Source: Candidatus Omnitrophota bacterium
GTDB taxonomy: Bacteria; Omnitrophota; Gorgyraeia; JAFGHF01
Direction of reading: 5' to 3'
Length of the DNA stretch: 64,000 nucleotides
Assembly (NCBI GenBank): GCA_020341815.1
Contig: CP070837.1
Span: 135,229 to 199,228 of the forward strand
In this document: positions 4,370 to 30,588 of the stretch, in pieces
Position numbering within the stretch: the stretch's first letter is position 1
How the letters are laid out: each line of letters begins with the position of its first letter
Notes under the pieces: generated by a model
Told to the model about the DNA's origin: nothing
Database searches by the model: none
The model's input: only the letters and a program-made list of their open reading frames with translations
Position numbers and translations under genes: made by a program

Positions 4370-4480
4370 ACCCCGCCCTTCCCAACACTATGCTTTGCAT
4401 AAGAGATATTGGCGAAGGCAATAAAAGGAAGGGTTGGGGATATAACCCTGGCATAGCGATGAAAGGAAGAGCGGGGTGAA
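4366..4480 (+). repeat. IR-flanked intergenic repeat element (RPE/MITE-like), copy 1, subfamily A
   Basis: Left end TGAACCCCGCCCTTCC includes the mscS stop. Right end GGAAGAGCGGGGTGAA includes the SD-like motif and the glgC GTG start. Core is TTGCATAAGAGATATTGGCGAAGGCAATAAAAGG. Confidence 0.8.
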
Positions 4481-5696
4481 TAAGATACTTACATTTATTA
4501 TGGCCGGAGGAAAAGGGGAAAGACTTTTTCCTTTGACCAGGGAAAGAACCAAGCCGGCGACTCCCTTCGGAGGCGTCTATCGAATTATTGATTTTACTTT
4601 AAGCAATTGCATCAATTCGGGCCTACGCAAAGTCTGCGTGCTTACTCAATATAAATCCAGCTCCCTTAATCATCACTTAACTATGGGCTGGAGTATCTTA
4701 AACAGCGAATTGGGTGAGTATATCGATGCTGTTCCGGCCCAGCAGAGAATTAGCGATACCTGGTACTTAGGCACGGCCGATTCTATTTATCAAAATCTTT
4801 ATCTGGTTATCGAAGAGACCCCTGATTATGTCCTTATTCTGGCTGGCGACCATATATATAAGATGGACTATGGCCAGATGCTCCAGTTTCATCGCAAAAG
4901 ACGCGCCGACCTTACGGTTGCAGTTGTGGAGGCTCAAAAGGAAGAGGCTCATCGCTTGGGTATCCTTGAGGTCGACAGGAGGATGCAGGTGCGGGGTTTT
5001 CAGGAAAAACCCAAAGGGCCTGAGGGTATTTTCGGCAGAACAGACTCTGTCTATGCCTCGATGGGGATATATGTTTTTAGCCGGGAAGTCCTGATTGAGG
5101 AACTGGCCGAAGATGCTGCCAGGCAAAACTCTGAACACGACTTTGGGAAAAATATAATTCCCCAGATGGTCGGCAAGCGAAAGAAGATTTTTGCCTATAA
5201 TTTCAAAGACCCCGAAAGCAATACGCCGAAATACTGGAGAGATGTGGGGGATATCGATGCCTATTATGAGGCAAATATGGATTTGGTGCGGGTTACGCCC
5301 GAATTTAATCTCTATGATAAAGAGTGGCCTATTCGTACTTATCAGGAGCAGTTTCCCCCGGCAAAGACCGTCTGGAGCGGCCAGGAAAATAAACGGCGCA
5401 TCGGCCAGGCTATTAATTCTCTGATTGCCAGCGGATGTATTATAAGCGGAGGCTTGGTAAAGAATTCTATCCTTTCTCCTGCGGTGCGCATTAATAGCTT
5501 TGCCGAGGTTTATGATTCCATTATTATGGAAGGCGCAGAAATCGGAAGGTTTGCTAAAATCAAAAGGGCAATCATCGATAAAAATGTCAGGGTTTCTCAA
5601 GATGCGACAATCGGCTACGACCCGATAGAAGACAGAAAGAGATTTACGGTTAGCGAATCAGGAATTACCGTGGTAGGCAAAGGGGCCAGCGTCTAA
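4476..5696 (+). CDS. glgC: Glucose-1-phosphate adenylyltransferase
   Basis: N-terminal MNKILTFIMAGGKGERLFPLT nucleotidyltransferase motif. GTG start lies inside the repeat element. Confidence 0.9.
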   Translation: MNKILTFIMAGGKGERLFPLTRERTKPATPFGGVYRIIDFTLSNCINSGLRKVCVLTQYKSSSLNHHLTMGWSILNSELGEYIDAVPAQQRISDTWYLGTADSIYQNLYLVIEETPDYVLILAGDHIYKMDYGQMLQFHRKRRADLTVAVVEAQKEEAHRLGILEVDRRMQVRGFQEKPKGPEGIFGRTDSVYASMGIYVFSREVLIEELAEDAARQNSEHDFGKNIIPQMVGKRKKIFAYNFKDPESNTPKYWRDVGDIDAYYEANMDLVRVTPEFNLYDKEWPIRTYQEQFPPAKTVWSGQENKRRIGQAINSLIASGCIISGGLVKNSILSPAVRINSFAEVYDSIIMEGAEIGRFAKIKRAIIDKNVRVSQDATIGYDPIEDRKRFTVSESGITVVGKGASV

Positions 5697-6970
5697 TGCG
5701 ATTGAACATTACCGAGAAAATATTGTTAGCGCATACAGATCGAGAAGAGATCTCACCCGGAGAAATTATTGAGGCCCGCGTAGATTTGGCCCTGGGCAAC
5801 GATATTACCGCGCCCCTTGCTATTAAAAAATTCAAGGCCGCAGGCATCAAAAAGGTGTTCAACCGCGAAAGGATTGCTCTTGTCTGCGACCATTTTGTGC
5901 CCAATAAGGACGCTCCCAGCGCCCGTCAGTGCCGGATGGTTGAAGACTTCGCCCGTGATTTTAAGATTAATCATTTTTATCCCCTGGGAGAAGGCGGCAT
6001 TGAGCATGTGCTTTTGCCTGAGGCGGGCCTGGTTCTTCCGGGAGATTTGATTATAGGGGCCGATTCGCACACCTGCACCTACGGCGCCTTAGGGGCCTTT
6101 TCCACAGGAGTGGGCTCAACGGATTTAGCGGCGGTCTGGATTACGGGAAAGATTTGGCTGCGCGTGCCCGAATCGATGAAGTTTATCTATTCCGGAAAAT
6201 TAAGACCCTGGGTAGGCGGCAAAGACCTTATCCTGCACACCATAGGCGATATCGGGGTCTCCGGAGCTACATATAAGGCCATGGAGTTTACCGGGCCTGC
6301 GATTAAACATTTGTCCATGGATGACAGATTCTCGATGTGTAATATGGCTATTGAGGCCGGGGCAAAATCAGGGATAATTGAAGCGGATAAAATAACGCGT
6401 AAATATATTAATTCAGTCGCTAGTCGCTTGTCGCTAGTATCTAGTAAAAGATTTTATAAAAGCGATAGGAACGCCAGGTATTGCGACATGAGGGAATATG
6501 ACGTAAGTAAACTCCAGCCGCAGGTGGCCTGTCCGCATCTGCCCAGCAACGTAAAGCCCGTAGGCGAGCTGAAAAAAGTAAGCATAGACCAGGCGGTAAT
6601 CGGCTCCTGCACCAACGGGCGGATTTCCGATTTGATGACAGCGGCCAGAGTCCTGAAAAACAAAAAGGCTAATTCCCGGGTAAGGTTAATCGTTTTTCCG
6701 GGCACGCAGCAGATTTATCAAGAGGCCCTGAAGATGGGCTTAATGGATATATTTATTGATGCCGGTGCAACTATTTGTCCGCCTACCTGCGGGCCCTGCC
6801 TTGGCGGGCATATGGGCGTTTTAGGTGATAAAGAAGTGGCTATCGCCACCACTAATCGTAATTTCCGCGGTAGAATGGGGGCTTTAACAAGTAAGGTGTA
6901 TTTGTCTAATCCGGCTGTAGCAGCGGCAAGTGCCGTTCATGGCACGATTACGCATCCGGGAGAGAGTTGA
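5696..6970 (+). CDS. leuC: 3-isopropylmalate dehydratase large subunit (archaeal-type LeuC/aconitase family)
   Basis: Aconitase-family Cys ligands (CTNGR, CGPC) at a length of 424 aa. Followed by leuD and leuB. Confidence 0.85.
   Translation: MRLNITEKILLAHTDREEISPGEIIEARVDLALGNDITAPLAIKKFKAAGIKKVFNRERIALVCDHFVPNKDAPSARQCRMVEDFARDFKINHFYPLGEGGIEHVLLPEAGLVLPGDLIIGADSHTCTYGALGAFSTGVGSTDLAAVWITGKIWLRVPESMKFIYSGKLRPWVGGKDLILHTIGDIGVSGATYKAMEFTGPAIKHLSMDDRFSMCNMAIEAGAKSGIIEADKITRKYINSVASRLSLVSSKRFYKSDRNARYCDMREYDVSKLQPQVACPHLPSNVKPVGELKKVSIDQAVIGSCTNGRISDLMTAARVLKNKKANSRVRLIVFPGTQQIYQEALKMGLMDIFIDAGATICPPTCGPCLGGHMGVLGDKEVAIATTNRNFRGRMGALTSKVYLSNPAVAAASAVHGTITHPGES
6414..6446. repeat. Heptamer tandem array inside leuC (AGTCGCT AGTCGCT TGTCGCT AGTATCT AGTA)
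   Basis: The 7-bp periodic repeat is directly visible. About 30 nt nearly match the array at 15675-15712. Confidence 0.6.
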
Positions 6971-7885: not shown

Positions 7886-8953
7886 ATGAGCAGGAATTAC
7901 AAGATTGCCGTAGTGCCCGGAGATGGAACGGGTCCGGAAGTAGTCAGAGAGGGCTTGAAGGTCTTGAAGGCGGTAAGCGAAATTAGCGGCTTTAAATATA
8001 CCTTGAAGGAGTTTGATTACGGGGCAGAACGTTATTTAAAGACAAACAAGGTGCTTTCCGATTCAGCTTTAGCTGAGTTTAAAAAGTTTGATGCTATTTA
8101 CCTTGGCGCGGTGGGCGACCCGCGGGTAAAGCCGGGGATACTGGAGCAGGGCCTTCTTTTAAAGATGAGATTTGGCCTGCAGCAGTATATTAATCTGCGG
8201 CCGGTAAAGCTTTATCCGGGTGTCTGGACACCTCTTAGAGACAAGGGTCCTGAGGATATCGATTTTGTGGTGGTGCGCGAAAATAATGAAGGTTTATATG
8301 TGGGAGAGGGAAAGTTTATTAAAAAAGGCACCAAGAATGAAGTGGCCCTTCAGGTTTCACGCAACAGCCGAAGTGGTGTCGAGCGCTGTATTCGTTATGC
8401 CTTTGAGTTTACCCGAAAGCGCAACAAGAGAAAAAAACTCACCCTTTGCGGTAAGACTAATGTCTTGACTTATGCCTGGGACCTGTGGGAGCGCACCTTT
8501 GGCGAGGTGGCCAAGGAATATTCCGATATCACCACCGATTATGCCCATGTGGATGCAACGTGTATGTGGATGGTGAAGAACCCTGAGTGGTTTGACGTGA
8601 TTGTTACGGATAATATGTTCGGTGATATTATTACCGACCTGGGCGCAATGATTCAGGGTGGGATGGGCATTGCCGCAGGGGGCAATATCAACCCCCAAGG
8701 AGTTTCCATGTTTGAGCCGATTGGCGGCTCGGCCCCCAAATATACCGGCAAGAACTTAATCAATCCTTTGGCGGCAATCTGTGCCCTGGGAATGCTGCTC
8801 GATGAATTAGGGGAAGAAGAGGCCGCTACAACGATAGAGAAGTCGGTAATGCATGTAACCGCAAATAAACTAAAAAGTCTCTCCGCTGGAAAAATGGGTT
8901 ATTCCACCAGCGAGGTGGGGGACTTAGTGGCGGAGAACTTAAGCAGGGGTTAG
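7886..8953 (+). CDS. leuB: 3-isopropylmalate dehydrogenase
   Basis: N-terminal [16 protein letters not shown] and isocitrate/isopropylmalate dehydrogenase motifs. Confidence 0.9.
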
Positions 8954-8955
8954 AA

Positions 8956-9453
8956 ATGGTTTTTTATGAAGAGACATTGCGGGCATTTCAAAAACAAAAA
9001 GTAAAATATGTACTTGTAGGGGGAATTGCCGTTAATCTGCTTGGTGCAATGCGAAGTACCGCTGATTTAGATATTCTTGTCGAAATGAGTGATAATAATT
9101 TGAGAAAGACAGTTAAAATTTTAAAAAGGCAGGGTTATTATGTTAAGCAGCCGGTTGATCCGATAAGCATTGCAATTAGAGAAATAAGAGAAGACTGGAT
9201 TAAGAATAAACACATGAAGGCTTTTAACTTCTATAAAGAAGATGAGTTAAAAGAAGTCGACATAATTATAGAATCGCCCGTATCCTTCAAGGAAGCCAGA
9301 AACAGTGCAATACGTATTAAAGCCGGCGACTTAACTTTACCTGTAATTTCCATAGATAAGCTGATCAAAATGAAAAGCAAGGCAGCGCGCTTGGTTGATA
9401 AATTAGATATAGAAGAGTTAAAGAAAATAAAAAAATTAAGGAAGAAGCTATGA
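8956..9453 (+). CDS. Minimal nucleotidyltransferase-fold protein (DUF6036/MNT-like)
   Basis: hGG-x13-DLD motif (YVLVGGIAVNLLGAMRSTADLDILV). It is an accessory insertion between leuB and asd. Confidence 0.55.
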   Translation: MVFYEETLRAFQKQKVKYVLVGGIAVNLLGAMRSTADLDILVEMSDNNLRKTVKILKRQGYYVKQPVDPISIAIREIREDWIKNKHMKAFNFYKEDELKEVDIIIESPVSFKEARNSAIRIKAGDLTLPVISIDKLIKMKSKAARLVDKLDIEELKKIKKLRKKL

Positions 9454-9608
9454 TTTTTAAATGGGAAAGCCAAAGGGAGCGTCTTTTGAGATTTATGAAG
9501 ATATCACCGAAGAAAAAGTTAGAGTGGCTTCGGGAAATAAATGAATTCACTGCTAAATATTCGTCAAAACGCAGCAACTTAATTCGGCGGAAACTTCGCA
9601 CGAGGTAA
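9450..9608 (+). CDS. Small basic ORF (52 aa) translationally coupled to the nucleotidyltransferase gene
   Basis: ATGA start/stop overlap with the upstream gene. Peptide is MIFKWESQRERLLRFMKISPKKKLEWLREINEFTAKYSSKRSNLIRRKLRTR. Not in the ORF track because it is shorter than 60 aa. Confidence 0.4.
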   Translation: MIFKWESQRERLLRFMKISPKKKLEWLREINEFTAKYSSKRSNLIRRKLRTR

Positions 9609-9613
9609 ATCAA

Positions 9614-10633
9614 ATGAAGAGATATAATGTAGCGGTAGTAGGAGTGGGAGCGGTTGGTGAGGAAATGCTGCGCGTTCTGCACCAGCGAAAGTTTCCTGTA
9701 AATGAATTGCGTGTTTTTGCCCGCAGCTCACGGGAGATTGTCGTAGATAGGCATAAATATAGCGTCCGGAAGGTCTCTCCCGAGGGCTTTGAGGCAATAA
9801 ATATTGCTTTATTTGCCGGAACCGAAGGCGAAAAGGGCGCAGCCGTAACTTATGCCCCCGAGGCCATAAAAAGAGGGGCGATAGCGATTGATAACGGCGC
9901 AGACTTTCGTCTGAGGAAAGATGTGCCTTTGGTTGTGCCGGAAGTAAATCCGCAGGATGTAAAAAAGCATAAGGGGATTATCTCCAATCCCAATTGTTCT
10001 ACTATTCAGCTGGTTGTTGCCTGCGGGCCTATCCATAAAAAAGTAGGAATAAAAAGGATGATTGTTGCTACCTACCAGGCCGCCTCCGGCGCCGGCAGGG
10101 CAGCGGTGGATGAGTTGAACAGGCAGTCAAAGGAGGTCTTAAGCGGGGGCGCAGTAAGTGAGGCTAAGGCCCTCCCGGCCCGGATTGCCTTTAATGTTTT
10201 TCCGCAAATCGGCGGCTTCCAGAAGGATGATTATACAACAGAGGAGTGGAAGACGGTTAATGAGACGCACAAGATTCTCCATGATAATAAGATAAAGATT
10301 ACCTCAACCACAGCGCGCGTGCCTGTTGCCGTAGGCCACAGCCAGGCGGTTTATCTGGAGACGGCTGAAGAGATTTCTCCTGCCGGCCTCAGGCAGTTGC
10401 TTAAGAAATCAAAAGGCATAAAGGTGGTTGACGCAGCGCAAGGTGAGAAAGGGCGCAGTTATCCCCAGGCCATAGACGCCGCAGGAGGCGATGATGTATT
10501 GGTCGGGCGCATCAGAAAGGACCCATTTGTGAAAAATGGCCTCTGGTTATGGGTGGTTGCCGATAATCTGCGCAAAGGCGCAGCCTTGAATGCGGTGCAG
10601 ATTGCCGAACTCGTATGCGGAATATCAAGTTAA
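9614..10633 (+). CDS. asd: Aspartate-semialdehyde dehydrogenase
   Basis: N-terminal NAD-binding VAVVGVGAVG and the Asd active-site region (NPNCSTI). Confidence 0.9.
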   Translation: MKRYNVAVVGVGAVGEEMLRVLHQRKFPVNELRVFARSSREIVVDRHKYSVRKVSPEGFEAINIALFAGTEGEKGAAVTYAPEAIKRGAIAIDNGADFRLRKDVPLVVPEVNPQDVKKHKGIISNPNCSTIQLVVACGPIHKKVGIKRMIVATYQAASGAGRAAVDELNRQSKEVLSGGAVSEAKALPARIAFNVFPQIGGFQKDDYTTEEWKTVNETHKILHDNKIKITSTTARVPVAVGHSQAVYLETAEEISPAGLRQLLKKSKGIKVVDAAQGEKGRSYPQAIDAAGGDDVLVGRIRKDPFVKNGLWLWVVADNLRKGAALNAVQIAELVCGISS

Positions 10634-11364
10634 TCATTGAATATGAGGGCAGCGGTTATTCCGGCTGGCAGGTACAAAACGGAAGTCAGAGAAAAACCGT
10701 TCAGGAGACGATAGAAGGCGCCTTAGCTCAGATTCTTCAGGAAAAGGTTAAATTAATCGGTTCAGGAAGGACCGATAGCGGGGTTCATGCCCAAGCCCAG
10801 ATAGCCAATTTTAAGACCAAATCCGGGCTTGATTGCGCCAATATCAAGAGGGCCTTAAACAGTGTTTTGCCTGTGGATATCCGTATCAAAGAGGTCAAAG
10901 AGGCCCATCCCGATTTTCACGCAAGATTTGCTGCCCAAAGCAAGACCTATCGCTACACTATAGTTAATGACAGCTTTGCCTCGCCTTTTCTCAGGCGCTA
11001 CGCGCATCTGATAAAGTACCCTTTAAGTATAACAAAGATGCGTAAAGCAGGTAATTATCTTATAGGAAGGCATAATCTCGCTTCCTTTCAGGCCCAGGAT
11101 AAAAGAAAGAGGCCGGCGGTGCGCACAATCAAGCGCCTGAACGTGCGCAAGTATAAGAATCTTATACATATAGACATTGAGGCCGACGGTTTTCTCTACC
11201 GGATGGTGCGCAATATTGTAGGCACCCTTATTGAAGTGGGCCGAAAGAAGCTTACTCCAGAGGATATAAAGGCCATTCTTAAGGCCAAAAACAGGATTTA
11301 TGCCGGTCCCTGTGCCCCGGCCAGGGGTTTGTGCCTCTTAGAGGTGAGATATAAAAGGGGTTGA
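10615..11364 (+). CDS. truA: tRNA pseudouridine(38-40) synthase
   Basis: IEYEGSGYSGWQ and RTDSGVHA motifs. Confidence 0.85.
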   Translation: MRNIKLIIEYEGSGYSGWQVQNGSQRKTVQETIEGALAQILQEKVKLIGSGRTDSGVHAQAQIANFKTKSGLDCANIKRALNSVLPVDIRIKEVKEAHPDFHARFAAQSKTYRYTIVNDSFASPFLRRYAHLIKYPLSITKMRKAGNYLIGRHNLASFQAQDKRKRPAVRTIKRLNVRKYKNLIHIDIEADGFLYRMVRNIVGTLIEVGRKKLTPEDIKAILKAKNRIYAGPCAPARGLCLLEVRYKRG

Positions 11365-11389
11365 CAAACGGCTAAAATTATGCTATACT
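11361..11389 (+). promoter_or_regulatory. Sigma70-type promoter TTGACA-17-TATACT upstream of rplM-rpsI
   Basis: TTGACA at 11361-11366, a 17-nt spacer and TATACT at 11384-11389. Confidence 0.6.
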
Positions 11390-11414
11390 TCACCTCTCCC
11401 GAAAAGAGGCAAAA

Positions 11415-11843
11415 ATGAAGACCTACATCGCTAAACCCAAAGAAATCAAGAGGAAATGGTATTTGCTTGACGCCAAGGATAAAATCTTGGGCCGTATTGC
11501 CACGCAGGCGGCGACGATTCTGCGCGGCAAGCATAAGGCCATCTTTACACCTCATGTCGATTGCGGAGATTATGTGGTTATAATTAACGCTAAAGATATA
11601 AGGGTAACCGGAAACAAGATGGAAGAGAAGATGTATAAGCGTTATTCCGGATATCCCAGCGGATTGAAGGAAACGCCGCTAAAAGATATGCTTAAGAAAA
11701 AGCCTGAAGAGGCGCTTAAGCATGCAATCAAGGGGATGCTGCCTAAGGGGCCTTTAGGCAGAGAGACTTTTAAAAAGCTGAAGATTTATGCAGGAAGCGC
11801 CCATCATCACCAGGCCCAGAAACCAAAGGTCTTGGAGCTTTAA
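11415..11843 (+). CDS. rplM: 50S ribosomal protein L13
   Basis: [30 protein letters not shown] is a canonical L13 N-terminus. Confidence 0.95.
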
Positions 11844-11846
11844 GCT

Positions 11847-12239
11847 ATGGAAAAGGAAAAATTTCAGGGGACAGGAAGAAGAAAAAGAGCCGTAGCCAGG
11901 ATAATGCTTTCGCCGGGCGAAGGGAAAGTGCTGATTAACGGCAGGACGCCGGAGGACTACTTTCCTATTCCGACCCTGCGTGTATGTATCTTGCAGCCTC
12001 TGAAAGCTACAGATACCCTAAAGAAGTTTAACGTCCATGTCAATGTAAGAGGCGGAGGTACCGCCGGCCAGGCCGAAGCTGTGCGTCATGGGATCGCCCG
12101 GGCTTTAATCAAAGCGGATGAAACCCTGCGCGCAACATTAAAAAGCGCCGGTTTCCTAAGGCGTGACCCACGGATGAAAGAGCGCAAGAAATACGGGCAA
12201 AAAGGCGCGCGACGGCAATTCCAGTGGACCAAGCGATAA
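11847..12239 (+). CDS. rpsI: 30S ribosomal protein S9
   Basis: [12 protein letters not shown] motif and a C-terminal basic tail ending in KR. Confidence 0.95.
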
Positions 12240-12302
12240 GTAAGGAGGACCAGCCAGAGATTGTTTAATATTTTTAAGTTTAATATTTAAGGTTTTAAAA
12301 TG

Positions 12303-12350
12303 AGCCTACTTATCGACGAAATTTCTTGACGGAGTAGGCTTTTTTATTTT
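12303..12350 (+). terminator. Putative intrinsic terminator after rpsI
   Basis: Stem GCCTACT...AGTAGGC followed by TTTTTTATTTT. Confidence 0.5.
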
Positions 12351-12364
12351 ATAATATAAGTGAG

Positions 12365-12400
12365 GTTATAACTTATGGAACGAAGTAAACATAAGTTATA
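12365..12400 (+). promoter_or_regulatory. 12-bp perfect inverted repeat TTATAACTTATG-N12-CATAAGTTATAA in the argC leader
   Basis: Directly visible. A second imperfect hairpin (CCGAC..TGCGGGAAA / TTTCCCCGCA..GTCGG) follows at 12411-12465. Confidence 0.5.
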
Positions 12401-12486
12401 AGGCCGAACTTATTCCGACGAGTGCGGGAAAATTGTGGAATAGAATTTCCCCGCATCATACGAGTCGGAGAAGAGGATAAACGGTT

Positions 12487-13506
12487 ATGTTAAAAATTGC
12501 TATAGTAGGGGCAACAGGATATGCAGGTGAGGAATTATTGAAAGTTTTAGTCAATCATCCCCGCCTTAAGATAACCTCTGTCTCGGCGAAGATAGATAAA
12601 CCGCAGAAGATCGATCAAGTCTTTCCTTATCTTAAAGGCAAGTTAGATTTAATCTGTAAAGAGCCGGACTTTTCTCAAATTGTACCTGATTGCGATTTGG
12701 CCTTTCTGGCGCTTCCGCACCGGGTATCTATGGATGTGGCTCCTCAATTTCTGCATGGGGGAAAGAAGGTTATCGACTTAAGCGCAGATTATAGATTAAA
12801 AGAGACTTCTGTCTATGAGAAGTGGTACGCCGCCAAACATAAAGACCCCGAACATCTTAAAGGGGCAGTTTATGGCCTGCCGGAAGTTTACAGAAAAAAA
12901 ATTAAACAGGCCCAGCTTATAGCCAATCCCGGCTGTTATCCTACGGGAATAATTCTGGGCTGCCTGCCTTTTTTGTCGAAGCATGCGGTGTTCACGGAGA
13001 ATATTATCGTTGATGCCAAGACCGGCTTAAGCGGCGCAGGAAGAGAAAAAGAGGCCTTGCTTATTCCCCAGATGCAGGATAATTTCAGGGCCTATAAGGT
13101 TGATGAACATCAGCATTCACCGGAGATAAATCAGGAATTATCCGGCTTTGCCAAAGAAAAAATAGAGATTACCTTTACCCCTCATCTTATTCCTATAAAG
13201 AGGGGAATCTTGAGCACAATTTATTTTCAATTGAAAAATAGAATTTCCCAGGAAGAGGCGCAGAAACTGTATCAGGATTTTTATCAGAATGAGCCGTTCG
13301 TGAAAGTGTTACCGGAAGGAAAGTTTCCTCAGCTTAGGGATGTAGTGAAGACGAATTTCTGCCACATAGGCTTGAAGGTAAACCCGGCCAGAAAAACAGC
13401 TATTGTTATTTCCGCCATAGATAACTTGGTTAAGGGTGCCTCCGGACAGGCGGTACAGAATATGAATATTATGTATGGGTTTGAAGAAACAGAAGGCTTG
13501 AAATGA
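12487..13506 (+). CDS. argC: N-acetyl-gamma-glutamyl-phosphate reductase
   Basis: MLKIAIVGATGYAGEEL and the active-site Cys region (NPGCYPT). Confidence 0.9.
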   Translation: MLKIAIVGATGYAGEELLKVLVNHPRLKITSVSAKIDKPQKIDQVFPYLKGKLDLICKEPDFSQIVPDCDLAFLALPHRVSMDVAPQFLHGGKKVIDLSADYRLKETSVYEKWYAAKHKDPEHLKGAVYGLPEVYRKKIKQAQLIANPGCYPTGIILGCLPFLSKHAVFTENIIVDAKTGLSGAGREKEALLIPQMQDNFRAYKVDEHQHSPEINQELSGFAKEKIEITFTPHLIPIKRGILSTIYFQLKNRISQEEAQKLYQDFYQNEPFVKVLPEGKFPQLRDVVKTNFCHIGLKVNPARKTAIVISAIDNLVKGASGQAVQNMNIMYGFEETEGLK

Positions 13507-13620
13507 ACCCCGCCCTTCCTAAAAAATGCAACTTAAGTATTGCAAAGAAGCGCTGGGGAGCTTTACTTTTGTTAAAAAAATGTATACAGAATAAGGGATG
13601 AAAGGAAGAGCGGGGTGAAG
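13504..13620 (+). repeat. IR-flanked intergenic repeat element, copy 2, subfamily B
   Basis: Left end TGAACCCCGCCCTTCC includes the argC stop. Right end GGAAGAGCGGGGTGAAG includes the argJ GTG start. Confidence 0.8.
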
Positions 13621-14802
13621 ATTATTGAAGGAGGAATAACAGCGCCAAAGGGTTTTACCTCAGGCGGCGTCCATTGCGGCATAAAATACAGAAATAAAGA
13701 CTTGAGCTTGATATATTCAAAAGCTCCTTGTCTGGGGTGTGGGTTGTTCACCCAGAATAAGGTTCAGGCCGCACCTGTTAAGATAACTCGTGCCCATTTA
13801 AAGAATAATAAAGCCCAGGCCATTATTGCCAACAGCGGAAATGCCAATTGTTGCACGGGAGAGCAAGGCCTTAAAGATGCCCGCAGGATATGTAAAGTTG
13901 TGGCCGATAAATTGGGCATAAGTCCGAGCGATGTCCTGGTAGCCTCTACAGGGATTATCGGCAAGAGATTGCCGATGGAGAGAATGGAAAAAGCTATCCC
14001 TGCGCTGCTTGATAGATTAAGCAACGAAAGAAGCCTTGAGGCGGCCCATGCGATTATGACTACGGATACTAAGCCTAAGCAGATATCCGTAGAGCTGAAC
14101 TTGGGAAGTGCTAAGGTGAGAATTGGCGCTATCGCCAAGGGCGCAGGGATGCTCCAGCCTCATTTGGCTACGATGCTCGCCTTTATTAGCACCGATGCGA
14201 AAATAGATAAAACAAGATTACAAAAAGCGCTTAAAGAGGCGGTGGATAATTCCTTCAATCTGATTACTGTAGAGGGCGATACCAGTACCAATGATATGGT
14301 TTTGATGCTGGCTAATGGTTTATCCGGCAATAAAAAGCTTAACGCAAAAGAGTTTATGCTTTTTCAGCAGGCCCTTAATTTTGTCTGCCTTTCCTTGGCT
14401 AAGATGCTTATTAAGGATGCCGAGGGCGCAACCAAATTTGCCCAGATTAAGGTGGAGCAGGCAAAAAATATTACTCAAGCCAAGCAAGTAGCCTTTAAAG
14501 TGGCCAATTCTGCTTTGGTAAAGACTGCCTTATTCGGGTCCAATCCCAACTGGGGCAGGATTGCTGCCGCAGCCGGTTGTGCCGATAGCGCGATCAAGGC
14601 TGATAGACTGGATATTTATCTGGATGGGCTAAAGGTATTGCAAAAAGGCGTTGTCTCGAAAGTGGACCGCCAGAGATTAAATGAAAGCTTCAAAAAAGAC
14701 GAAATAGAGATAAAAATTAATTTAGGATTAGGCAAATCTGCAACACGTGTTTTTACATGCGACCTGTCCGGGAAATATGTCAAGATCAATGCCAGGTATT
14801 AA
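13615..14802 (+). CDS. argJ: Bifunctional glutamate N-acetyltransferase / ornithine acetyltransferase
   Basis: GITAPKGF, ATMLAFISTDA and the T-autocleavage region. GTG start. Confidence 0.9.
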   Translation: MKIIEGGITAPKGFTSGGVHCGIKYRNKDLSLIYSKAPCLGCGLFTQNKVQAAPVKITRAHLKNNKAQAIIANSGNANCCTGEQGLKDARRICKVVADKLGISPSDVLVASTGIIGKRLPMERMEKAIPALLDRLSNERSLEAAHAIMTTDTKPKQISVELNLGSAKVRIGAIAKGAGMLQPHLATMLAFISTDAKIDKTRLQKALKEAVDNSFNLITVEGDTSTNDMVLMLANGLSGNKKLNAKEFMLFQQALNFVCLSLAKMLIKDAEGATKFAQIKVEQAKNITQAKQVAFKVANSALVKTALFGSNPNWGRIAAAAGCADSAIKADRLDIYLDGLKVLQKGVVSKVDRQRLNESFKKDEIEIKINLGLGKSATRVFTCDLSGKYVKINARY

Positions 14803-14823
14803 CCGCAGGAGTGTTGAAGTTTA

Positions 14824-15678
14824 ATGAAAAAGGCGATACAGAAGGCGGATATTTTATTAGAGGCCCTGCCTTATATTAAGAAGTTTCAGCATAAGGTTAT
14901 GGTGATAAAGTGCGGGGGCAGGCAGTTAATGAATAAACACATTATTGATAATATCCTGCAGGATATAGTGTTTATGAATTGCGTGGGCCTGAATCCGGTG
15001 CTTATCCACGGAGGCGGCCCCAGCATTAATCAGACACTGCAAGATTTAGGCAAAAAGATAGAGTTTCATCAGGGCTTTCGTGTTACGGATAAGCATACCT
15101 TAACAGTGGTGGTTAAGGAGTTAAATAAGCTTAACCAGTTAATGGTGAAGAAAATCAGGCAACTGGGAGCAAAGGCCGAAGGCCTAAGCGGTCAAAAGGG
15201 TAAGGCAATTAAAGCAAAAAAATTGCATTTCGATAAGAATATCGGTTTTGTGGGAGAGGTGGCCGCGATAAATACGCAAGGGATAAAAAATTTATTAAAA
15301 AGAGGAGTTGTGCCGGTACTTACTCCTTTGGGAATAGGCAGGGACAATCAAATTTACAACATTAATGCCGATATGGCAGCGGCGGAGATAGCCGCACAAT
15401 TAGGAGCGTGGAAACTGGTTCTTTTGACCGATGTGCAGGGTATTATGTATAGTCAAAGGGATAAAAATTCGCTGATTTCGACTTTGAAAATAGCAGAGAT
15501 TAAAGCTTTGATTAAAAAAGGCATTATCCATGGAGGGATGCTGCCCAAGGTTGCTTCCTGCGTAAAAGCATTAAAAAATGGAGTAAAAAAGACGCACATA
15601 ATTGACGGGGGAACCCCTCGTTCCTTGCTTCTGGAAATCTTTACCAATGAAGGTATCGGTACCCAGATTGTCAGTTAG
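14824..15678 (+). CDS. argB: Acetylglutamate kinase
   Basis: VIKCGG and the amino-acid kinase fold, with arginine-cluster context. Confidence 0.9.
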   Translation: MKKAIQKADILLEALPYIKKFQHKVMVIKCGGRQLMNKHIIDNILQDIVFMNCVGLNPVLIHGGGPSINQTLQDLGKKIEFHQGFRVTDKHTLTVVVKELNKLNQLMVKKIRQLGAKAEGLSGQKGKAIKAKKLHFDKNIGFVGEVAAINTQGIKNLLKRGVVPVLTPLGIGRDNQIYNINADMAAAEIAAQLGAWKLVLLTDVQGIMYSQRDKNSLISTLKIAEIKALIKKGIIHGGMLPKVASCVKALKNGVKKTHIIDGGTPRSLLLEIFTNEGIGTQIVS

Positions 15679-15812
15679 TCGCTCGTCGCTCGTATCTGGT
15701 ATCTAGTAAGAAGTAAGACAGAAACAATAAAATTTTTTAAATATTTAGAAATTACACAAAAAGTTTTTAATAACTAGATACAAGATACTGGATACTAGAT
15801 ACTAGTAAAAAT
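15675..15812. repeat. Inverted arrays of GTATCTNG/GTCGCT heptamer repeats flanking an AT-rich core (argB-argD intergenic)
   Basis: Left arm is TAGTCGCTCGTCGCTCGTATCTGGTATCTAGTAAGAAGTAAG. Right arm is CTAGATACAAGATACTGGATACTAGATACTAGTAA, the reverse complement of tandem GTATCTNG units. About 60 bp of AT-rich sequence lies between them. Confidence 0.6.
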
Positions 15813-16994
15813 ATGGATAAGAATAAATTAATTAAAGAATATGAAAAATATGTAATGCCCACTTATACCAGGACACCTTTGGTGATTACAAAGGGTAAGG
15901 GCTCAAAGGTTTGGGATGAGAGTGGCAAGGAATATCTGGACTTTTTTCCCGGCTGGGCAGTCAGCGGCCTGGGACACAGGCATCCTCTGGTAGTTGCGGC
16001 TTTATCGGAGCAGGCCAAGAAAGTTCTACATGTACCCAATAATTATTATAATGAATTGCAGGGAGAATTAGCAAAAAAGATTTCTCAAAGTTCTTTTGAC
16101 GGCAAGGTTTTTTTCTGTAACAGCGGCGCCGAAAGCGTTGAGTCGGCAATAAAACTGGCCAGGCTTTACGGAAGCAGCGCCGGTAAATACGAAATTATCA
16201 CTATGGAAAACTCTTTCCATGGCAGGACATTAGCTTCTTTGGCCGCCACAGGCCAAAGTAAATATAAAGAAGGTTTTGCTCCTTTGCCGCAAGGATTTCT
16301 CCAGGTGCCTTTCAATGATTTGGCGGCCCTGAAGGCAAAAATTAACCCAAAGACGACTGCTGTGATGCTTGAGCTGATTCAGGGAGAAGGCGGGATAAAT
16401 GTAGCCGACCCCGAATATATTAAAGCTATAAAAGCGCTTTGCGATGAAAAGGGCTTGCTTTTGATTTTTGATGAGGTGCAGACGGGAATAGGAAGAACGG
16501 GAAAGATGTTTTGCTATCAGCATTATGGTATTACGCCCGATATAATGACTATGGCAAAGTCCTTAGGCGGAGGCTTTCCTATAGGAGCAATTATTGCCCA
16601 GAGAAAAATCGCCGATACATTGGGGCCGGGAAAGCATGCCTCTACCTTTGGGGGCAGTCCTTTGGCCTGCGCCTGCAGTTTGGCGGTTTTTCAGGCCGTA
16701 GAGAAAGAAAAACTTTTAGCCAATGCTAAAGAGACGGGCGAATATTTATATAAAAAATTATCCCATTTGAAAGAAAAATATCATATAATAAAAGAGATTA
16801 GAGGAAAAGGCCTGATGCTGGGGATAGAATTGGATAAAGAGGGAGGCCCCATATATGAGGAGTGTCTTAAAAAGGGCCTTCTGATTAATTGCACGCACGG
16901 CAATGTCTTAAGGATAATGCCCCGCTTGGGCGTATCAAAAGCTGAAATAGATAAGGCGATAGCTATTCTGGATAGCGTATTGCAGGGAAGCTGA
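15813..16994 (+). CDS. argD: Acetylornithine aminotransferase
   Basis: Class-III aminotransferase motifs (FDEVQTGIGRTG and the PLP lysine region). Confidence 0.9.
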   Translation: MDKNKLIKEYEKYVMPTYTRTPLVITKGKGSKVWDESGKEYLDFFPGWAVSGLGHRHPLVVAALSEQAKKVLHVPNNYYNELQGELAKKISQSSFDGKVFFCNSGAESVESAIKLARLYGSSAGKYEIITMENSFHGRTLASLAATGQSKYKEGFAPLPQGFLQVPFNDLAALKAKINPKTTAVMLELIQGEGGINVADPEYIKAIKALCDEKGLLLIFDEVQTGIGRTGKMFCYQHYGITPDIMTMAKSLGGGFPIGAIIAQRKIADTLGPGKHASTFGGSPLACACSLAVFQAVEKEKLLANAKETGEYLYKKLSHLKEKYHIIKEIRGKGLMLGIELDKEGGPIYEECLKKGLLINCTHGNVLRIMPRLGVSKAEIDKAIAILDSVLQGS

Positions 16995-17001
16995 GAAAAA
17001 A

Positions 17002-17922
17002 ATGAAGAGAGACTTTCTTTCCATTAAGGATTTGCAGTTAGAAGAGATTGAGCATATCTTTAGCCTGACCGATGAGCTCAAGGCGAAGGTCAAGGACCAT
17101 AGCCGCAGTTTATCGGGTAAGTCCCTGGGGCTCATCTTTCTCAAGCCTTCTTTAAGGACAAGGGTATCTTTTGAAGTGGGGATGAACCAGTTAGGGGGTT
17201 ACGCCCTTTCCCTGGCGGCGGAAGATATAAAGTTTGGCACCAGAGAAGCGGCTAAAGATTTCGGTAAAGTTCTTTCGCGATATTTAGATGCCTTGGTGGT
17301 AAGGACCTTTTCTCATAGCGAAGTTGAGGAGCTGGCAGACTCATCCGATATTCCCGTAATCAACGGCTTAACGGATTTACTGCACCCTTGCCAGGCATTA
17401 AGCGACCTTTATACCATTAAAGAGAAAAAAGGTAATTTAGACGATATTAAGCTTGCCTTTATAGGTGACGGAAATAATGTAGCCCATTCTTTGCTTTACG
17501 GATGCGCTAAATTAGGAGTAAACTTAAAGATAGCTACTCCCTCCAAACATAAACCTGATGAGGAAATCTTTAATCATGCAAAGGAACTGGCCAAATCATC
17601 CGGAGTGGAAATAATTTTGTCGGATAAGCCCTCCAGCGCGGCAGCCAATGCCGATGTAATATATACCGATGTCTGGGCAAGTATGGGCCAGGAGAGAGAA
17701 TATAAGAAAAAAGTTAAAGATTTTAAAGGATTTCAGGTAAATCAGGAGCTTCTTTCTTTGGCAAAACCAGATTGTCTGGTGATGCATTGCCTGCCGGCGC
17801 ACAGAGGCGAAGAGATAACCGATGAGGTACTTGACGGGGCCCATTCCATAGTATTTGACCAGGCAGAGAACAGGATGCACCTGCAGAAGGCAATATTATT
17901 GATGTTGTTAGGAGGATATTGA
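17002..17922 (+). CDS. argF: Ornithine carbamoyltransferase
   Basis: STRTR and HCLPA motifs. Confidence 0.9.
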   Translation: MKRDFLSIKDLQLEEIEHIFSLTDELKAKVKDHSRSLSGKSLGLIFLKPSLRTRVSFEVGMNQLGGYALSLAAEDIKFGTREAAKDFGKVLSRYLDALVVRTFSHSEVEELADSSDIPVINGLTDLLHPCQALSDLYTIKEKKGNLDDIKLAFIGDGNNVAHSLLYGCAKLGVNLKIATPSKHKPDEEIFNHAKELAKSSGVEIILSDKPSSAAANADVIYTDVWASMGQEREYKKKVKDFKGFQVNQELLSLAKPDCLVMHCLPAHRGEEITDEVLDGAHSIVFDQAENRMHLQKAILLMLLGGY

Positions 17923-18043
17923 TGAACCCCGTTACTCCCAAGCACCACGCCTTGCATAATAGATATGGGCGAAGCTAATAAAAAGGAATAGCGGGGATAA
18001 AGATTTGGCATTAGGATGAGATGAAAGGAGTAACGGGGTGAAA
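17923..18043 (+). repeat. IR-flanked intergenic repeat element, copy 3, subfamily A, with compensatory arm changes
   Basis: Left end TGAACCCCGTTACTCC and right end GGAGTAACGGGGTGAA, including the argG GTG start. The arms differ from the other copies but remain mutually complementary. Confidence 0.8.
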
Positions 18044-19207
18044 AAGGTAATTTTAGCCTATTCGGGAGGATTGGATACTTCTTGCTGTGTAGTTTGGCTT
18101 AAAGAGCAGGGGTTTAAGGTGATTACCTATACCGCAGATTTAGGCCAGGGAATAAACTTTGCCCAGCTGAAGAAAAAGGCCAAAGATTGCGGGGTAAGCA
18201 AGGCCTATGTTCAGGGCTTAAAAGATAAGTTTCTCAAACATTTTGTTTTTCCTACGCTTCGTGCCGGGGCAATCTATGAAGCAAAATATCCTCTGGCTAC
18301 AGCCTTGGGCAGGCCCTTGATTGCCGAGGGCTTGGTGGAGATTGCCCATAAAGAAGGGGCTGGATATATCGCCCACGGCTGCACCGGAAAGGGTAACGAC
18401 CAGGTGCGAATTGAGGTCTCTGTAGCAGCCCTGGATAAAAAAATAAAAACGATTGCACCTTTAAGGGAATGGGACTTAAAAACAAGAGAAGAGGAAATAA
18501 AATATGCCAAAAAACACCAGATTCAGGTTTCCGCTACCAAAAAGAGCCCTTACAGCACAGACTTAAATCTCTGGGGCAGAAGTATTGAATGCGGGGTATT
18601 AGAAAACCCCTATCATGAGCCTCCGGAAGAGATTTATGAGTTAACCGAAAATCCGCTTAAATGTCCAAATAAAGCAACTTATGTAACAATTGAGTTTGCC
18701 GAAGGCGTGCCTGTAAAATTAAACGGAAAAGCACAGGGAGCAGTTGCTCTTATATCCAAGCTTAATAAAATAGCCGGTGCCTGTGGTGTAGGCAGGATTG
18801 ATATGGTGGAAAACAGGCTCGTTGGAATTAAAAGCAGGGAGATTTATGAGGCCCCGGCAGCGATAGTTCTTTACCTTGCCCATCGTGAGCTGGAGGATTT
18901 GGTCTTAGATAGAGAAACTGCCCAGTTTAAAAGAATTGTTGCAGAGAAATATTCGCAGTTAGTCTACAACGGCCTCTGGCACACGTCGCTAAAGAGCGCC
19001 CTGGATAAGTTTGTTCAGGTCACACAGAAAAATGTCACAGGTGTTGTTAAAATGAAGCTGTATAAAGGCAGTTGTGTATGTGTAGGCAGAAAATCGCCCT
19101 TCTCCTTGTACAAAAAAGAACTGGCCACATATGAAAAAGGGGATAAGTTTGATGCATCCGCAGCAAGCGGCTTCATCAAGATTTGGGGCCTGCCATATAA
19201 TAGTTAA
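18038..19207 (+). CDS. argG: Argininosuccinate synthase
   Basis: AYSGGLDTS PP-loop and argininosuccinate synthase signature. GTG start. Confidence 0.9.
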   Translation: MKKVILAYSGGLDTSCCVVWLKEQGFKVITYTADLGQGINFAQLKKKAKDCGVSKAYVQGLKDKFLKHFVFPTLRAGAIYEAKYPLATALGRPLIAEGLVEIAHKEGAGYIAHGCTGKGNDQVRIEVSVAALDKKIKTIAPLREWDLKTREEEIKYAKKHQIQVSATKKSPYSTDLNLWGRSIECGVLENPYHEPPEEIYELTENPLKCPNKATYVTIEFAEGVPVKLNGKAQGAVALISKLNKIAGACGVGRIDMVENRLVGIKSREIYEAPAAIVLYLAHRELEDLVLDRETAQFKRIVAEKYSQLVYNGLWHTSLKSALDKFVQVTQKNVTGVVKMKLYKGSCVCVGRKSPFSLYKKELATYEKGDKFDASAASGFIKIWGLPYNS

Positions 19208-19229
19208 TTGATAAAAAGGAGAAAAAACA

Positions 19230-20927
19230 ATGCCTAAAATCAATGTAATACTTTTGATTGGTTTGGCTGCTATTGTTACGAGCACATCCTTTGCCGAAGA
19301 ATTCACCCTGACCACCTATTACCCCGCCCCATACGGGGTATATCGCGAGATGCGCGCACAAAGAATGGCCATAGGAGATAACTTCTATGATGCCTCGGCC
19401 TATTGTTGGCAGGGAACTTGTACCGATGCCATAGGTTCGGCTGCCGATTTAGTTGTACAGGGTGATGTGGGTATTGGAACTCATAATCCTTCAAGGAGAC
19501 TGACTATTGCCGGAAGCGGCGGATACGGCGAAGCAGGAGCCGCGGCAATCGGGCTGGAAAATACATCAGCAACAGGCACCAACTGGCAGTGGCACGTAAG
19601 AGATGACATGCGGGCTCAACTCGTTGACTACACTACAGCAGGCATAACAAGATTTTTGGCTTCATCAGGTAATGCTGTAGGATACATATATGTTGATGGA
19701 ACAGACGGTAATGTAGGCATTGCCGCAACCGGGACATTTAGTCCTGTAAATAAGCTGGATGTGGATGGAGCAGTTGCCATTGGCGATACTTACGCGGGAT
19801 CATCCACAGCGCCTGCTAACGGGTTGCTTGTTGAGGGTAATGTCCGTTTCAACAGTGCTATAGCGCGGCAGGGCTCGACCCTGGCAGGTAACGCTCCTGC
19901 CACCCACGTTAATTTAGGAGCAAGTAGCACTACAGGGTGGAAAGGAACAGGAGCAGCCGGCTATGCAACAGTGGGGGGAGGATATAATAATAAGGCAATA
20001 TTGGATTACACCACGGTTGCTGGTGGATCGGGCAACAAAGCAGATAATAGCTGGTCAACAGTTGGCGGTGGAAAGTCAAATAGTGCAATTGACTATGCCT
20101 GTTTCATTGGAGGCGGGGATGGCAATTCTGCAAAAGGAGACTGTTCTTCAATTTTAGGTGGCAAGAACAATCAGGCTGCGGATAACTACTCTACTGTAGC
20201 AGGAGGCATAGCCAATAAAGCTATCGGCAGAGTGTCTTTTGCAGCAGGAGCATTGGCAACAGCTAGACATGATGGTAGTTTTGTTTGGGCTGACTATTCA
20301 GAAAGTGTAGAGTATGCTTCTAATGGAGAAAACACCTTCAACATCCTTGCCGACGGAGGTATCTATTTTACTGGAGCAGCTGGGACCAATAACTTAAGAT
20401 ATAGGCCGGGTGACATTGCAGAGTTTGTCGATACCCTAAAAAAAGACCGACTTCAGGAAGCAGAGATAGTCAGTATAGTGGACAATAATCTTTTTGGCAG
20501 GACAACAAAGCCTTATGATGAGAACCTAATGGGGGTTATTTCCGGGGATAGGACCTGTTCTTTTTATATAGGCCAGACCGAAAGTCTCAAAGAAGAGATA
20601 GAGCGCTTGCCCATAGCTTTGGCCGGCCCTGTGTATGTGAAGGTAACCAGCGAGTCAGGTAATATAGCTATAGGCGATTCCATAACTTCATCGGCTATTG
20701 CAGGTGTAGGGATGAAGGCTACTCGAAGCGGCAAAATCATCGGTTACGCGATGGAAAATGAGGATTTTTCTGATGCCGGAGAGATAAAAGAAATTTTGGT
20801 ATTTGTTAATATAGGATATTATATGGCAAATGATGATTTTCGAAAGTTAACACAACTTGAGCAAAGCTTGACTAAGATTGAACGCTTAGAAGAAGAGATA
20901 GAGATGTTGAAGGCGGAATTATTTTAA
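19230..20927 (+). CDS. Secreted glycine-rich repeat protein (tail-fibre-like / YadA-head-like repeats) with C-terminal coiled coil
   Basis: Signal peptide MPKINVILLIGLAAIVTSTSFA. Repeated xTVAGG.GNKA / SxxGGG.xNxA units and a C-terminal heptad coiled coil (LTQLEQSLTKIERLEEEIEMLKAELF). Inserted between argG and argH. Confidence 0.6.
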   Translation: MPKINVILLIGLAAIVTSTSFAEEFTLTTYYPAPYGVYREMRAQRMAIGDNFYDASAYCWQGTCTDAIGSAADLVVQGDVGIGTHNPSRRLTIAGSGGYGEAGAAAIGLENTSATGTNWQWHVRDDMRAQLVDYTTAGITRFLASSGNAVGYIYVDGTDGNVGIAATGTFSPVNKLDVDGAVAIGDTYAGSSTAPANGLLVEGNVRFNSAIARQGSTLAGNAPATHVNLGASSTTGWKGTGAAGYATVGGGYNNKAILDYTTVAGGSGNKADNSWSTVGGGKSNSAIDYACFIGGGDGNSAKGDCSSILGGKNNQAADNYSTVAGGIANKAIGRVSFAAGALATARHDGSFVWADYSESVEYASNGENTFNILADGGIYFTGAAGTNNLRYRPGDIAEFVDTLKKDRLQEAEIVSIVDNNLFGRTTKPYDENLMGVISGDRTCSFYIGQTESLKEEIERLPIALAGPVYVKVTSESGNIAIGDSITSSAIAGVGMKATRSGKIIGYAMENEDFSDAGEIKEILVFVNIGYYMANDDFRKLTQLEQSLTKIERLEEEIEMLKAELF

Positions 20928-30482: not shown

Positions 30483-30503
30483 TTTTATTTAAGTTTTGAG
30501 CTT

Positions 30504-30564
30504 AAGGCCCCTGTAATTGCTGCTTGGCCCGTTCAAAATTTTGAATGGGCTTTACAGGGGCCTT
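30504..30564. promoter_or_regulatory. Nested palindrome overlapping the uvrA promoter
   Basis: Outer arms are AAGGCCCCTGTAA / TTACAGGGGCCTT. Inner palindrome is GCCCGTTCAAAATTTTGAATGGGC. TTTACA(30551)-17-TATAAT(30574) overlaps the right arm. Confidence 0.55.
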
Positions 30565-30588
30565 ACCCTTTGCTATAATCGGACTAAA

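Follow-up and report, generated by a model that had tools for sequence, protein, structure and literature searches.

The argF/argG junction and its insert

A stretch of 64,000 nucleotides from a Candidatus Omnitrophota bacterium (contig CP070837.1, positions 135,229 to 199,228 of the forward strand; hereafter the window) was analysed at the junction between argF and argG, where a small insert with mutually complementary ends is located. This insert is the third of five copies of one element (copies 1 to 5), all of them on the + strand and with an element proper of 68-112 bp. Copy 3 is probably a recent insertion of a non-autonomous transposable element of the kind known as MITEs (miniature transposable elements with inverted repeats), carrying an inherited class of arms. 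The best homologs of the ArgG and UvrA proteins of the window belong to Candidatus Omnitrophota. The closest relative (sequencing run SRR24270831) encodes ArgG and UvrA with 96% and 95% identity, respectively, and its contigs L184 and L192 show 92-96% nucleotide identity to positions 8559-19370 and 20954-42407 of the window. The features of the junction are the following.

17002-17922, + strand: argF (ornithine carbamoyltransferase); its stop codon TGA (17920-17922) lies directly before the target-site duplication.
17922-17978, + strand: residual short open reading frame (ORF) from the old ATG, translated as MNPVTPKHHALHNRYGRS and a stop.
17923-17926, + strand: left TGAA of the target-site duplication; with the preceding A it forms the original argG start (ATG 17922-17924), as deduced from empty and filled sites.
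17926-17938, + strand: left arm ACCCCGTTACTCC (terminal inverted repeat, class 2); its first base, the A at 17926, also ends the left TGAA.
17927-18038, + strand: element proper of copy 3 (CCCCG...CGGGG, 112 bp, long form), absent from the L184 junction TTGATGAAAAAGG and recovered by the flank-blind search.
17985-17996, + strand: internal pseudo right arm GGAATAGCGGGG, followed by ATAA; direct repeat D1, with 80% identity to the outer right arm.
18027-18039, + strand: right arm GGAGTAACGGGGT, a 13-nt perfect inverted repeat with the left arm.
18039-18042, + strand: right TGAA of the target-site duplication, the TG of which joins the element's last G to give the new start codon GTG.
18038-19207, + strand: argG (argininosuccinate synthase; NCBIfam NF001770, residues 1-387, E=1.6e-172); the L184 homolog has an ATG start at the same residue.

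The two arms (17926-17938 and 18027-18039) form the sole inverted repeat in the region 17880-18080; they are 13 nt long, 100% complementary and 88 nt apart. Perfect inverted repeats of at least 13 bp within 140 nt were found at four loci of the window versus 0.13 expected from first-order Markov simulations, which rules out a chance origin of the repeat in copy 3. The predicted RNA fold of copy 3 is closed by this stem and reaches -34.5 kcal/mol (z = -3.9). An earlier note, made from the sequence of the window, had proposed a stem of 16 bp with TGAACCCCGTTACTCC (17923-17938) and GGAGTAACGGGGTGAA (18027-18042) as arms. Both strings are present at these positions; the stem, however, measures 13 bp, since the outer TGAA/TGAA is a direct repeat (the reverse complement of TGAA being TTCA).

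The arm pair of copy 3 is GTTACTCC/GGAGTAAC. Compared to copies 1 and 2, four changes in the left and three in the right arm were counted, which correspond to three double pair changes and one repaired mismatch. The earlier note described these changes as exactly complementary, which applies to the resulting arms and not to the changes themselves. The arm that it attributed to the other copies in general is carried by copies 1 and 2 only: their arms are GCCCTTCC/GGAAGAGC, with a C·A mismatch inside, and copies 4 and 5 carry GAAGGGC instead. The sequence GGAATAGCGGGG inside copy 3 is intermediate between class 1 (GGAAGGGC) and class 2 (GGAGTAAC). The core of copy 3, which had been considered nearly identical to that of copy 5, displays 80% identity to copy 5 and 84% to copy 1. 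The in-frame TAA reported in copy 3 was confirmed at 17976-17978, where the frame from the left ATG ends.

Empty sites, target duplication and mobility

Sites corresponding to four of the five copies could be compared between the window and its closest relative. Coordinates, form and empty sites of all copies, each of them on the + strand, are given here.

Copy 1, 4371-4476, + strand: 106 bp, long form, A-type core, at the junction of an mscS-like gene and glgC; TGAA at 4367-4370 and 4477-4480.
Copy 2, 13508-13615, + strand: 108 bp, B-type core, C·A mismatch, at the argC/argJ junction; empty in L184, where AAAATGAAGATT is found.
Copy 3, 17927-18038, + strand: argF/argG junction; TTGATGAAAAAGG in the relative, and in the window TTGATGAA, then the element (CCCCG...CGGGGTGAA), then AAAGG.
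Copy 4, 31165-31232, + strand: 68 bp, short form, in frame inside uvrA; flanks TAAA (31161-31164) and TGAA (31233-31236); GAAATAAAATTAGAT in the relative.
Copy 5, 41528-41595, + strand: 68 bp, short form, A-type core, at the polA/glgA junction; empty in L192, where AAAATGAAAGTC is found.

Intact empty sites were present in the relative for copies 2, 3, 4 and 5, i.e. for all four testable copies, and no copy of the element was detected in the 32.5 kb of L184 and L192. Copies 2, 3 and 5 have a TGAA at either side, and each corresponding empty site contains just one. When the element and one TGAA are taken out, the original ATGAA start codon is back. Each of these four copies therefore represents an insertion that is younger than the nucleotide divergence of about 7% from this relative.

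More distant relatives (about 80% identical) hold different elements at the same TGAA of the argF/argG junction. Two tandem copies are present in L185 and a copy with a B-type core in L187, and the site is empty in L188 and L189. Together with the empty and filled sites, these different elements at one site demonstrate that the element is mobile, duplicates its target and reaches the same junctions repeatedly. The annotation of L187 contains artefacts caused by the element, namely an argJ lengthened to 432 aa and a 31-aa 'gene' called within a copy.

Among the copies listed by a search that was blind to the flanks, TGAA/TGAA was found 107 times, TAAA/TAAA three times, TCAA/TCAA and TCAG/TCAG once each, and a few copies had one-base mismatches. 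In a relaxed search, 8/9 matches with one mismatch per end were concordant, five with the identical change in both flanks and three with compensatory changes in the stem tip. Tandem copies have one TGAA in common between them.

Within the window, 5/573 TGAA/TTCA sites are occupied, four of them at start codons and one in frame. The genes glgC, argJ, argG and glgA begin with the right-end GTG of copies 1, 2, 3 and 5, respectively. In copies 1, 2 and 5, the upstream gene stops at the left TGA; in copy 3, this TGA follows the stop codon of argF (17920-17922) immediately and in frame. The short ORF of copy 1 spans from an ATGA overlap to a GTGA overlap. Copy 4, with arms GCCCTTCT/AGAAGGGC, adds 72 nt (24 codons) to uvrA together with the 4-bp repeat in its right flank. 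An alignment gap of 23-24 residues at this position was seen when UvrA of the window was compared to solved UvrA structures, and the protein has a length of 972 aa versus 949 aa in the relative. Copy 5 has the arms GCCCTTCC/AGAAGGGC. The ORF finder lengthens glgA by 24 codons through this copy (41523-42956), the old ATG being in frame, which is an annotation artefact.

Other repeats were observed at neighbouring junctions. A second, unrelated insert with inverted repeats (AGTCGCTCGTCGCTCGTATCTGGTATCTAGTAA ... CTAGATACAAGATACTGGATACTAGATACTAG) is located between argB and argD (15669-15811), where L184, with 92-94% identity, has 16 nt instead; a heptamer-rich end at 6415-6447 is similar to that of this insert. 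Upstream of argC, about 100 extra nucleotides compared to L184 (12357-12486) contain the hairpin-forming segments GTTATAACTTATGG...CATAAGTTATAA and CGGGAAAATTGTGGAATAGAATTTCCCCG, and may represent a leader or one more small element. In a further Omnitrophota relative (L191), a distinct repeat with a length of about 100 bp (…CCTTATCGGAACTGGTTCC…TTATTAGCAAAAG…) is present in both orientations at argJ/argB, argD/argF and argF/argG (3340-3440, 5490-5600 and 6521-6633). These junctions of the operon seem to receive small elements in general.

At the end of the window (63907-64000), two copies of the 41-nt sequence ATAGTAATCTGGCGGCCCACCAGTAATTCTGGTGAGGCTCG lie 53 nt apart with 98% identity, each with its own hairpin, in a region that is cut by the window end. 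Perfect palindromes occur at 30503-30565 (TAAGGCCCCTGTAA/TTACAGGGGCCTTA), overlapping the listed start of the uvrA ORF (30545), and at 50784-50813 (AGTAGGGGCGTATTGCAATACGCCCCTACT), both in a short gap just after a gene end; they are probably terminators unrelated to the element. An ORF at 8956-9453 (within 8943-9611), absent from L184, encodes a 165-aa nucleotidyltransferase-like protein (matches to DUF6036, NTP_transf_5 and aminoglycoside-2''-adenylyltransferase) and resembles a small gene insertion.

The element family and the covariation of its arms

Public genomes were scanned, with one genome per species, using the pattern TGAACCCCGNNNNTC...GANNNNCGGGGTGAA. The matches listed came from 103 contigs, and all family figures refer to these listed matches. 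At least about 118 copies from at least 103 public contigs were obtained; 125 copies entered the count of gene contexts. The listed contigs belong mostly to Omnitrophota; others are labelled as Saccharibacteria, Parcubacteria and other groups of the Candidate Phyla Radiation (CPR), and contigs of Planctomycetota and Elusimicrobia and one 'Nitrospirae' bin are also included. The general layout of the element is TNAACCCCG(arm)...(arm)CGGGGTNAA, with terminal inverted repeats of 12 bp, of which the tip CCCCG is invariant and the inner part variable, an AT-rich core and a 4-bp TGAA duplication. The duplication provides an extra A-T pair and one more inward pair is possible, giving a predicted stem of 13-14 bp (13 bp in copy 3). 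An ORF of at least 60 codons is opened by the right-end GTG in 94/125 copies versus 0 and 6 in control frames, and the base before TGAA is A in 91/125 copies.

Copies of the CPR type were found antisense and in frame inside the genes of RmlD, an RluA-type pseudouridine synthase, UvrA and HolA. Fourteen copies, all from CPR-type contigs, carry the exact arms of copy 3 (GTTACTCC/GGAGTAAC) with a GC-rich core, and this arm class is the predominant one among the CPR copies. In the CPR-type copies of about 115 bp (L001, L003, L020, L030, L044, L053, L078 and L087), internal GC-rich hairpins change pairwise (CCCCGCC...GGCGGGG versus CCCTGCC...GGCAGGG), and in-frame translation of the same copies gives (L/I/V)HPVTP...AGSNGVH, so that constraints on the nucleic acid and on the peptide may both act on them. 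In an Omnitrophota relative, a 107-bp copy (L185 11277-11383, flanks TTAA/TAAA) is in frame in the gene of DapF (diaminopimelate epimerase), the product of which has 312 aa versus 272-283 aa in other relatives.

Further searches were negative. With Rfam 15, the window gave no match at gathering score, 18 loci gave only tRNAs and three loci searched at E<=5 nothing significant; the lone other match (HgcC, E=1.1) was on the opposite strand and due to chance. No match to the element pattern was obtained in viral contigs. A fuzzy search for the A-type core across all loci returned mostly noise, the genuine matches being window copies 1, 3 and 5 only, and a metagenome search with ArgJ yielded only relatives of at most 50% identity, none of them informative. 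No entry identical to the ArgG of the window was found.

Covariation was analysed on 73 distinct arm pairs. The 14-bp stem is paired at 93.6% versus 83.8% in shuffles (0/500 shuffles reached the observed value) and at 47-58% when the partner arm was slid. Double-sided changes were found at 8/8 stem positions left free by the search pattern, with 120 cells in total. The arms thus co-vary across the element family. The signal lies mostly between a few arm classes (CCCT, CCCC, TTAC, TACC and ATCC). In the C-rich class, the two arms are tightly linked at position 13 (66 T-A, 19 C-G and one cross) and vary independently of each other at position 11 (53 C-G, 28 C·A, 6 T·G and 3 T-A; Fisher p=1).

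For copy 3, less than one change is predicted in the 24 arm bases at the divergence of about 7% from L184, and seven were seen. These differences were consequently not made in place, and the pair GTTACTCC/GGAGTAAC was inherited from the source copy. Uncompensated arm changes, which the earlier note had regarded as a sign of drift rather than of structural constraint, were observed as well. The C·A at position 11 is present in 29/118 copies (about 25% overall and about a third of the C-rich class), including copies 1 and 2 of the window, and 3/3 arm substitutions were uncompensated in the orthologous pairs L004/L074 and L092/L098, which have flanks about 90% identical. Outside position 11, G·T and C·A mismatches occur in similar numbers (17 versus 15), and no mismatch pattern singles out the transcribed strand or RNA. 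Of the interpretation given in the earlier note, the covariation of the arms is supported. Direct evidence for selection on a secondary structure, RNA included, is not supported for the argF/argG locus, at which a young transposon carries an inherited arm pair. Binding of both ends by one transposase would make them co-vary with no hairpin involved, an alternative that was absent from the earlier note.

Insertion mechanism, alternative explanations and known systems

The commonest gene start (ATG AAx) has TGAA as its core, and surviving copies were found almost only at start codons, at gene junctions or as in-frame inserts within genes. The left TGAA at argG retains the upstream stop and the old ATG. 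As read from the sequence, a Shine-Dalgarno-like AAGGAG (18025-18030) reaches into the right arm and stands 7 nt before the GTG, which is composed of the element's last G and the TG of the duplication. With this motif and the rebuilt start, argG should remain expressible. The old Shine-Dalgarno sequence GGAGG (17911-17915) and the old ATG (17922) now head an ORF of 18 codons, the residual translation of which would be driven by that GGAGG. In the mRNA, the left arm, with its anti-Shine-Dalgarno-like CUCC, may mask the motif in the right arm; ribosomes finishing argF or the short ORF would then open the stem and initiation at argG would depend on them, so that the coupling of the former TGATG overlap would be preserved.

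With respect to the arms, complementarity would be kept in the transposing lineage if only copies with two matching ends were mobilised, via a hairpin or via symmetric recognition of the ends. The arms of a resident copy drift after insertion, no matching being apparently enforced there. The mutually complementary differences in the arms of copy 3 go back to a source copy with another arm class. Class-1 copies (2, 4 and 5) and the class-2 copy 3 were all recently inserted in one lineage, which implies either two transposases or one that reads tips and shape. On this ground, we lean slightly towards end recognition by pairing or shape rather than by two identical protein sites. As a tentative proposal, which we hold to be possible and no better than that, the copies could belong to a cross-phylum family of transposable hairpins that evolved to be harmless. 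Such a family would target the TGAA of ATG-AAx, its ends would double as an anti-Shine-Dalgarno/Shine-Dalgarno stem and as a stop/start cassette restoring the coupling, and its machinery would read the hairpin shape and the conserved tips, leaving the inner arms free to change while paired. If this is true, the earlier note was right about selection on structure, which would act, however, on transposition and on tolerance by the host.

Several observations weigh against copy 3 being a recent target-duplicating insertion with an inherited arm class. The flanks of copy 4 are TAAA (left) and TGAA (right), although the empty site reads TAAA, which a strict 4-bp duplication does not predict; either a synonymous A-to-G change occurred later or the right TGAA belongs to the element. 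The divergent same-site pair L061/L102 has two compensated C-G to T-A changes and a T·G wobble. This would be compensation in place if the two copies are truly orthologous, which is uncertain given the frequent independent insertion at the same sites. Copy 3 joins an Omnitrophota-type core (80-84% to copies 5 and 1) with a CPR-type arm class; no second hybrid of this kind was found among the approximately 95 listed Omnitrophota copies, and a change of both ends with the core retained lacks an explanation. No transposase was found, the only window-specific ORF being the nucleotidyltransferase mentioned above. In 1.9 Mb of loci, no matching ends 140-7000 bp apart enclosed an ORF, and only neighbouring small copies were paired. 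Finally, the scan demanded the termini TGAACCCCG/CGGGGTGAA, so that the family sample is biased and incomplete.

A stem selected locus by locus in the mRNA, for coupling or tuning of translation through the anti-Shine-Dalgarno/Shine-Dalgarno pairing or for stabilisation of the transcript, would fit the sense orientation of 5/5 window copies and 94/125 family copies, with a start codon at the foot of the stem. It would equally fit the GGAG, GGAAG or GAGG carried by right arms 6-8 nt before the GTG and predicted folds that are far stabler than shuffles (z -3.6 to -6.4). The frame from the left ATG is open through 48/118 copies, versus 17 and 11 for the two remaining frames, and 29 short ORFs end exactly at a GTGA overlap; in addition, L061/L102 may show compensation in place. 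This explanation is nevertheless considered unlikely. Copy 3 is too young for arm changes in place, and inherited orthologous copies gather uncompensated ones. On the top (mRNA) strand, the common mismatch is C·A and not G·U, with no excess of sense-strand wobbles (17 versus 15). The CPR copies retain the same stem antisense inside ORFs, arms of the TTAGAAA class occur at gene junctions without any Shine-Dalgarno-like motif, and no Rfam family was matched.

The likelihood is similarly low for a single-strand (HUH/Y1-type) or core-recombination element, in which the right TGAA would be part of the element, insertion would occur 3' of TNAA without duplication and the single-stranded DNA hairpin would be recognised as a whole, a recognition that requires arm pairing directly. 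Copy 4 is an exact fit (empty TAAA, filled TAAA...TGAA). The orientation is strongly uniform in the region, the genes of which are all on one strand, and pairing rather than sequence seems to be relevant, with two arm classes active in one lineage. Against it, flanks change jointly within one arm family (TAAA/TAAA three times, TGAA/TGAA once), and TCAA/TCAA and TCAG/TCAG occur elsewhere, as for a true duplication. Moreover, the ends pair with each other, unlike the separate subterminal hairpins of IS200/IS605 derivatives, and neither a REP-like GTAG/CGTC tag nor a Y1 transposase was seen. Arms homogenised by fold-back mismatch repair or template switching, i.e. concerted evolution without selection, would account for the perfect pairing of young copies and for the overlapping positions at which all three arm-like segments of copy 3 changed, the internal one being intermediate. 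As the C·A at position 11 has stayed uncorrected in about a quarter of the copies, in many genomes, and new mismatches are retained in orthologous copies, this process has little probability.

Least probable is a constraint on an encoded peptide, MNPALP.../...GRAG in sense or HPVTP...GSNGVH antisense in CPR genes. The frame from the left ATG is enriched for openness, and one antisense frame stays open through the CPR copies located in essential genes, but open frames are expected merely from the survival of in-frame insertions. Element lengths modulo 3 are distributed over 55, 46 and 24 copies, not restricted to multiples of three, and the arm change alters the peptide from MNPALP to MNPVTP. 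In copy 3 the left-ATG frame is broken by the TAA, in agreement with the view of the earlier note that an encoded peptide does not explain the covariation of the arms.

Other candidates were rejected. An integron attC site has R''/R' core sites, which are absent here, the sites being simple insertions; a CRISPR repeat was rejected as well, and neither a conserved catalytic core nor an Rfam match speaks for a small ribozyme or intron. Repetitive extragenic palindromic (REP) elements are excluded by the length of 68-112 bp, the loop of about 40-90 nt, the missing GTAG/CGTC head and the TGAA duplication. Palindrome-associated transposable elements (PATEs), the small elements derived from IS200/IS605, do not fit in structure, as neither arm is itself a hairpin and the ends pair together. 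Such elements insert 3' of a fixed tetra- or pentanucleotide and create no duplication, with which copy 4 agrees and the jointly changing flanks elsewhere disagree.

The element accounts for GTG starts after a strong hairpin in many genes of Omnitrophota and CPR, and for odd inserts of 24-40 residues in UvrA, DapF, RmlD and HolA. Gene callers should mask or model it, as illustrated by the false extension of glgA and the 31-aa 'gene' of L187. It also offers a natural experiment, in which overlapping stop/start junctions were interrupted, the genes were kept expressible and the same junctions were hit repeatedly in related lineages, and the two recently active arm classes in one lineage make recognition of transposon ends by shape or by sequence directly testable. 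More generally, different transposon subfamilies can be expected to show just such complementary changes at both ends of a copy, which therefore do not prove that an RNA structure was selected.

Terminal inverted repeats, a target-site duplication recognised from empty and filled sites, a small size without a transposase gene and many dispersed copies mark the element as a probable MITE. We know of no parent insertion sequence with its ends. It resembles bacterial MITEs, such as Nezha of cyanobacteria and Correia/NEMIS (Neisseria miniature insertion sequences) of Neisseria, in its size (about 70-115 bp), its inverted ends forming a long stem and its short flanking direct repeats. As with Nezha, for which these features served as criteria (PMC3184786), copies are numerous and dispersed, and sites filled in one genome are empty in a close relative. 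Unlike these MITEs, it targets the non-palindromic TGAA in a fixed orientation, its survivors are located at start codons, where it rebuilds the start codon and a Shine-Dalgarno motif, and it spans contigs of Omnitrophota, CPR/Patescibacteria, Planctomycetota and Elusimicrobiota.

Rickettsia palindromic elements (RPE) are in-frame palindromic inserts in unrelated housekeeping genes that are translated as an extra peptide (PMC10969869). The element is comparable in being in frame in UvrA (+24 codons), DapF, RmlD, the RluA-type synthase and HolA. It differs, as far as descriptions go, by its hosts and base composition, and further by the position of most Omnitrophota copies at gene starts or junctions and by its clear TGAA duplication.

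Mycobacterial interspersed repetitive units (MIRUs), reportedly described by Supply et al. in 1997, are said to be repeats at operon junctions, in one orientation, with short ORFs overlapping the flanking stop and start. The ATGA/GTGA overlaps of copy 1, the 29/118 copies ending at a GTGA overlap and the tandem copies in L185 recall this arrangement. MIRUs, however, consist of directly repeated tandem units and lack the inverted ends and the target duplication that the element has, and they are not known to be transposed.

REP2 of Neisseria and similar repeats of Borrelia are located directly upstream of genes, to which they supply a ribosome-binding site and a start codon (PMC3184786). REP2 carries a promoter and an ATG and, unlike the element, lacks flanking inverted ends and a target duplication, whereas the start codon of the element is assembled from its own end and the duplicated target. 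For bcr1 of the Bacillus cereus group, a transcribed mobile repeat of about 155 bp with a 5-bp direct repeat, compensatory changes were reported to keep the stem (PMC3184786). The element differs from it in sequence, target and host range, and bcr1 is not tied to start codons. In the literature, no description was found of a TGAA-targeting element that rebuilds start codons in Omnitrophota or CPR, which is absence of evidence only. The element is probably not a REP2, RPE, MIRU, REP or IS200/IS605 derivative; with its parent insertion sequence missing, it probably represents a new family within the known MITE kind.

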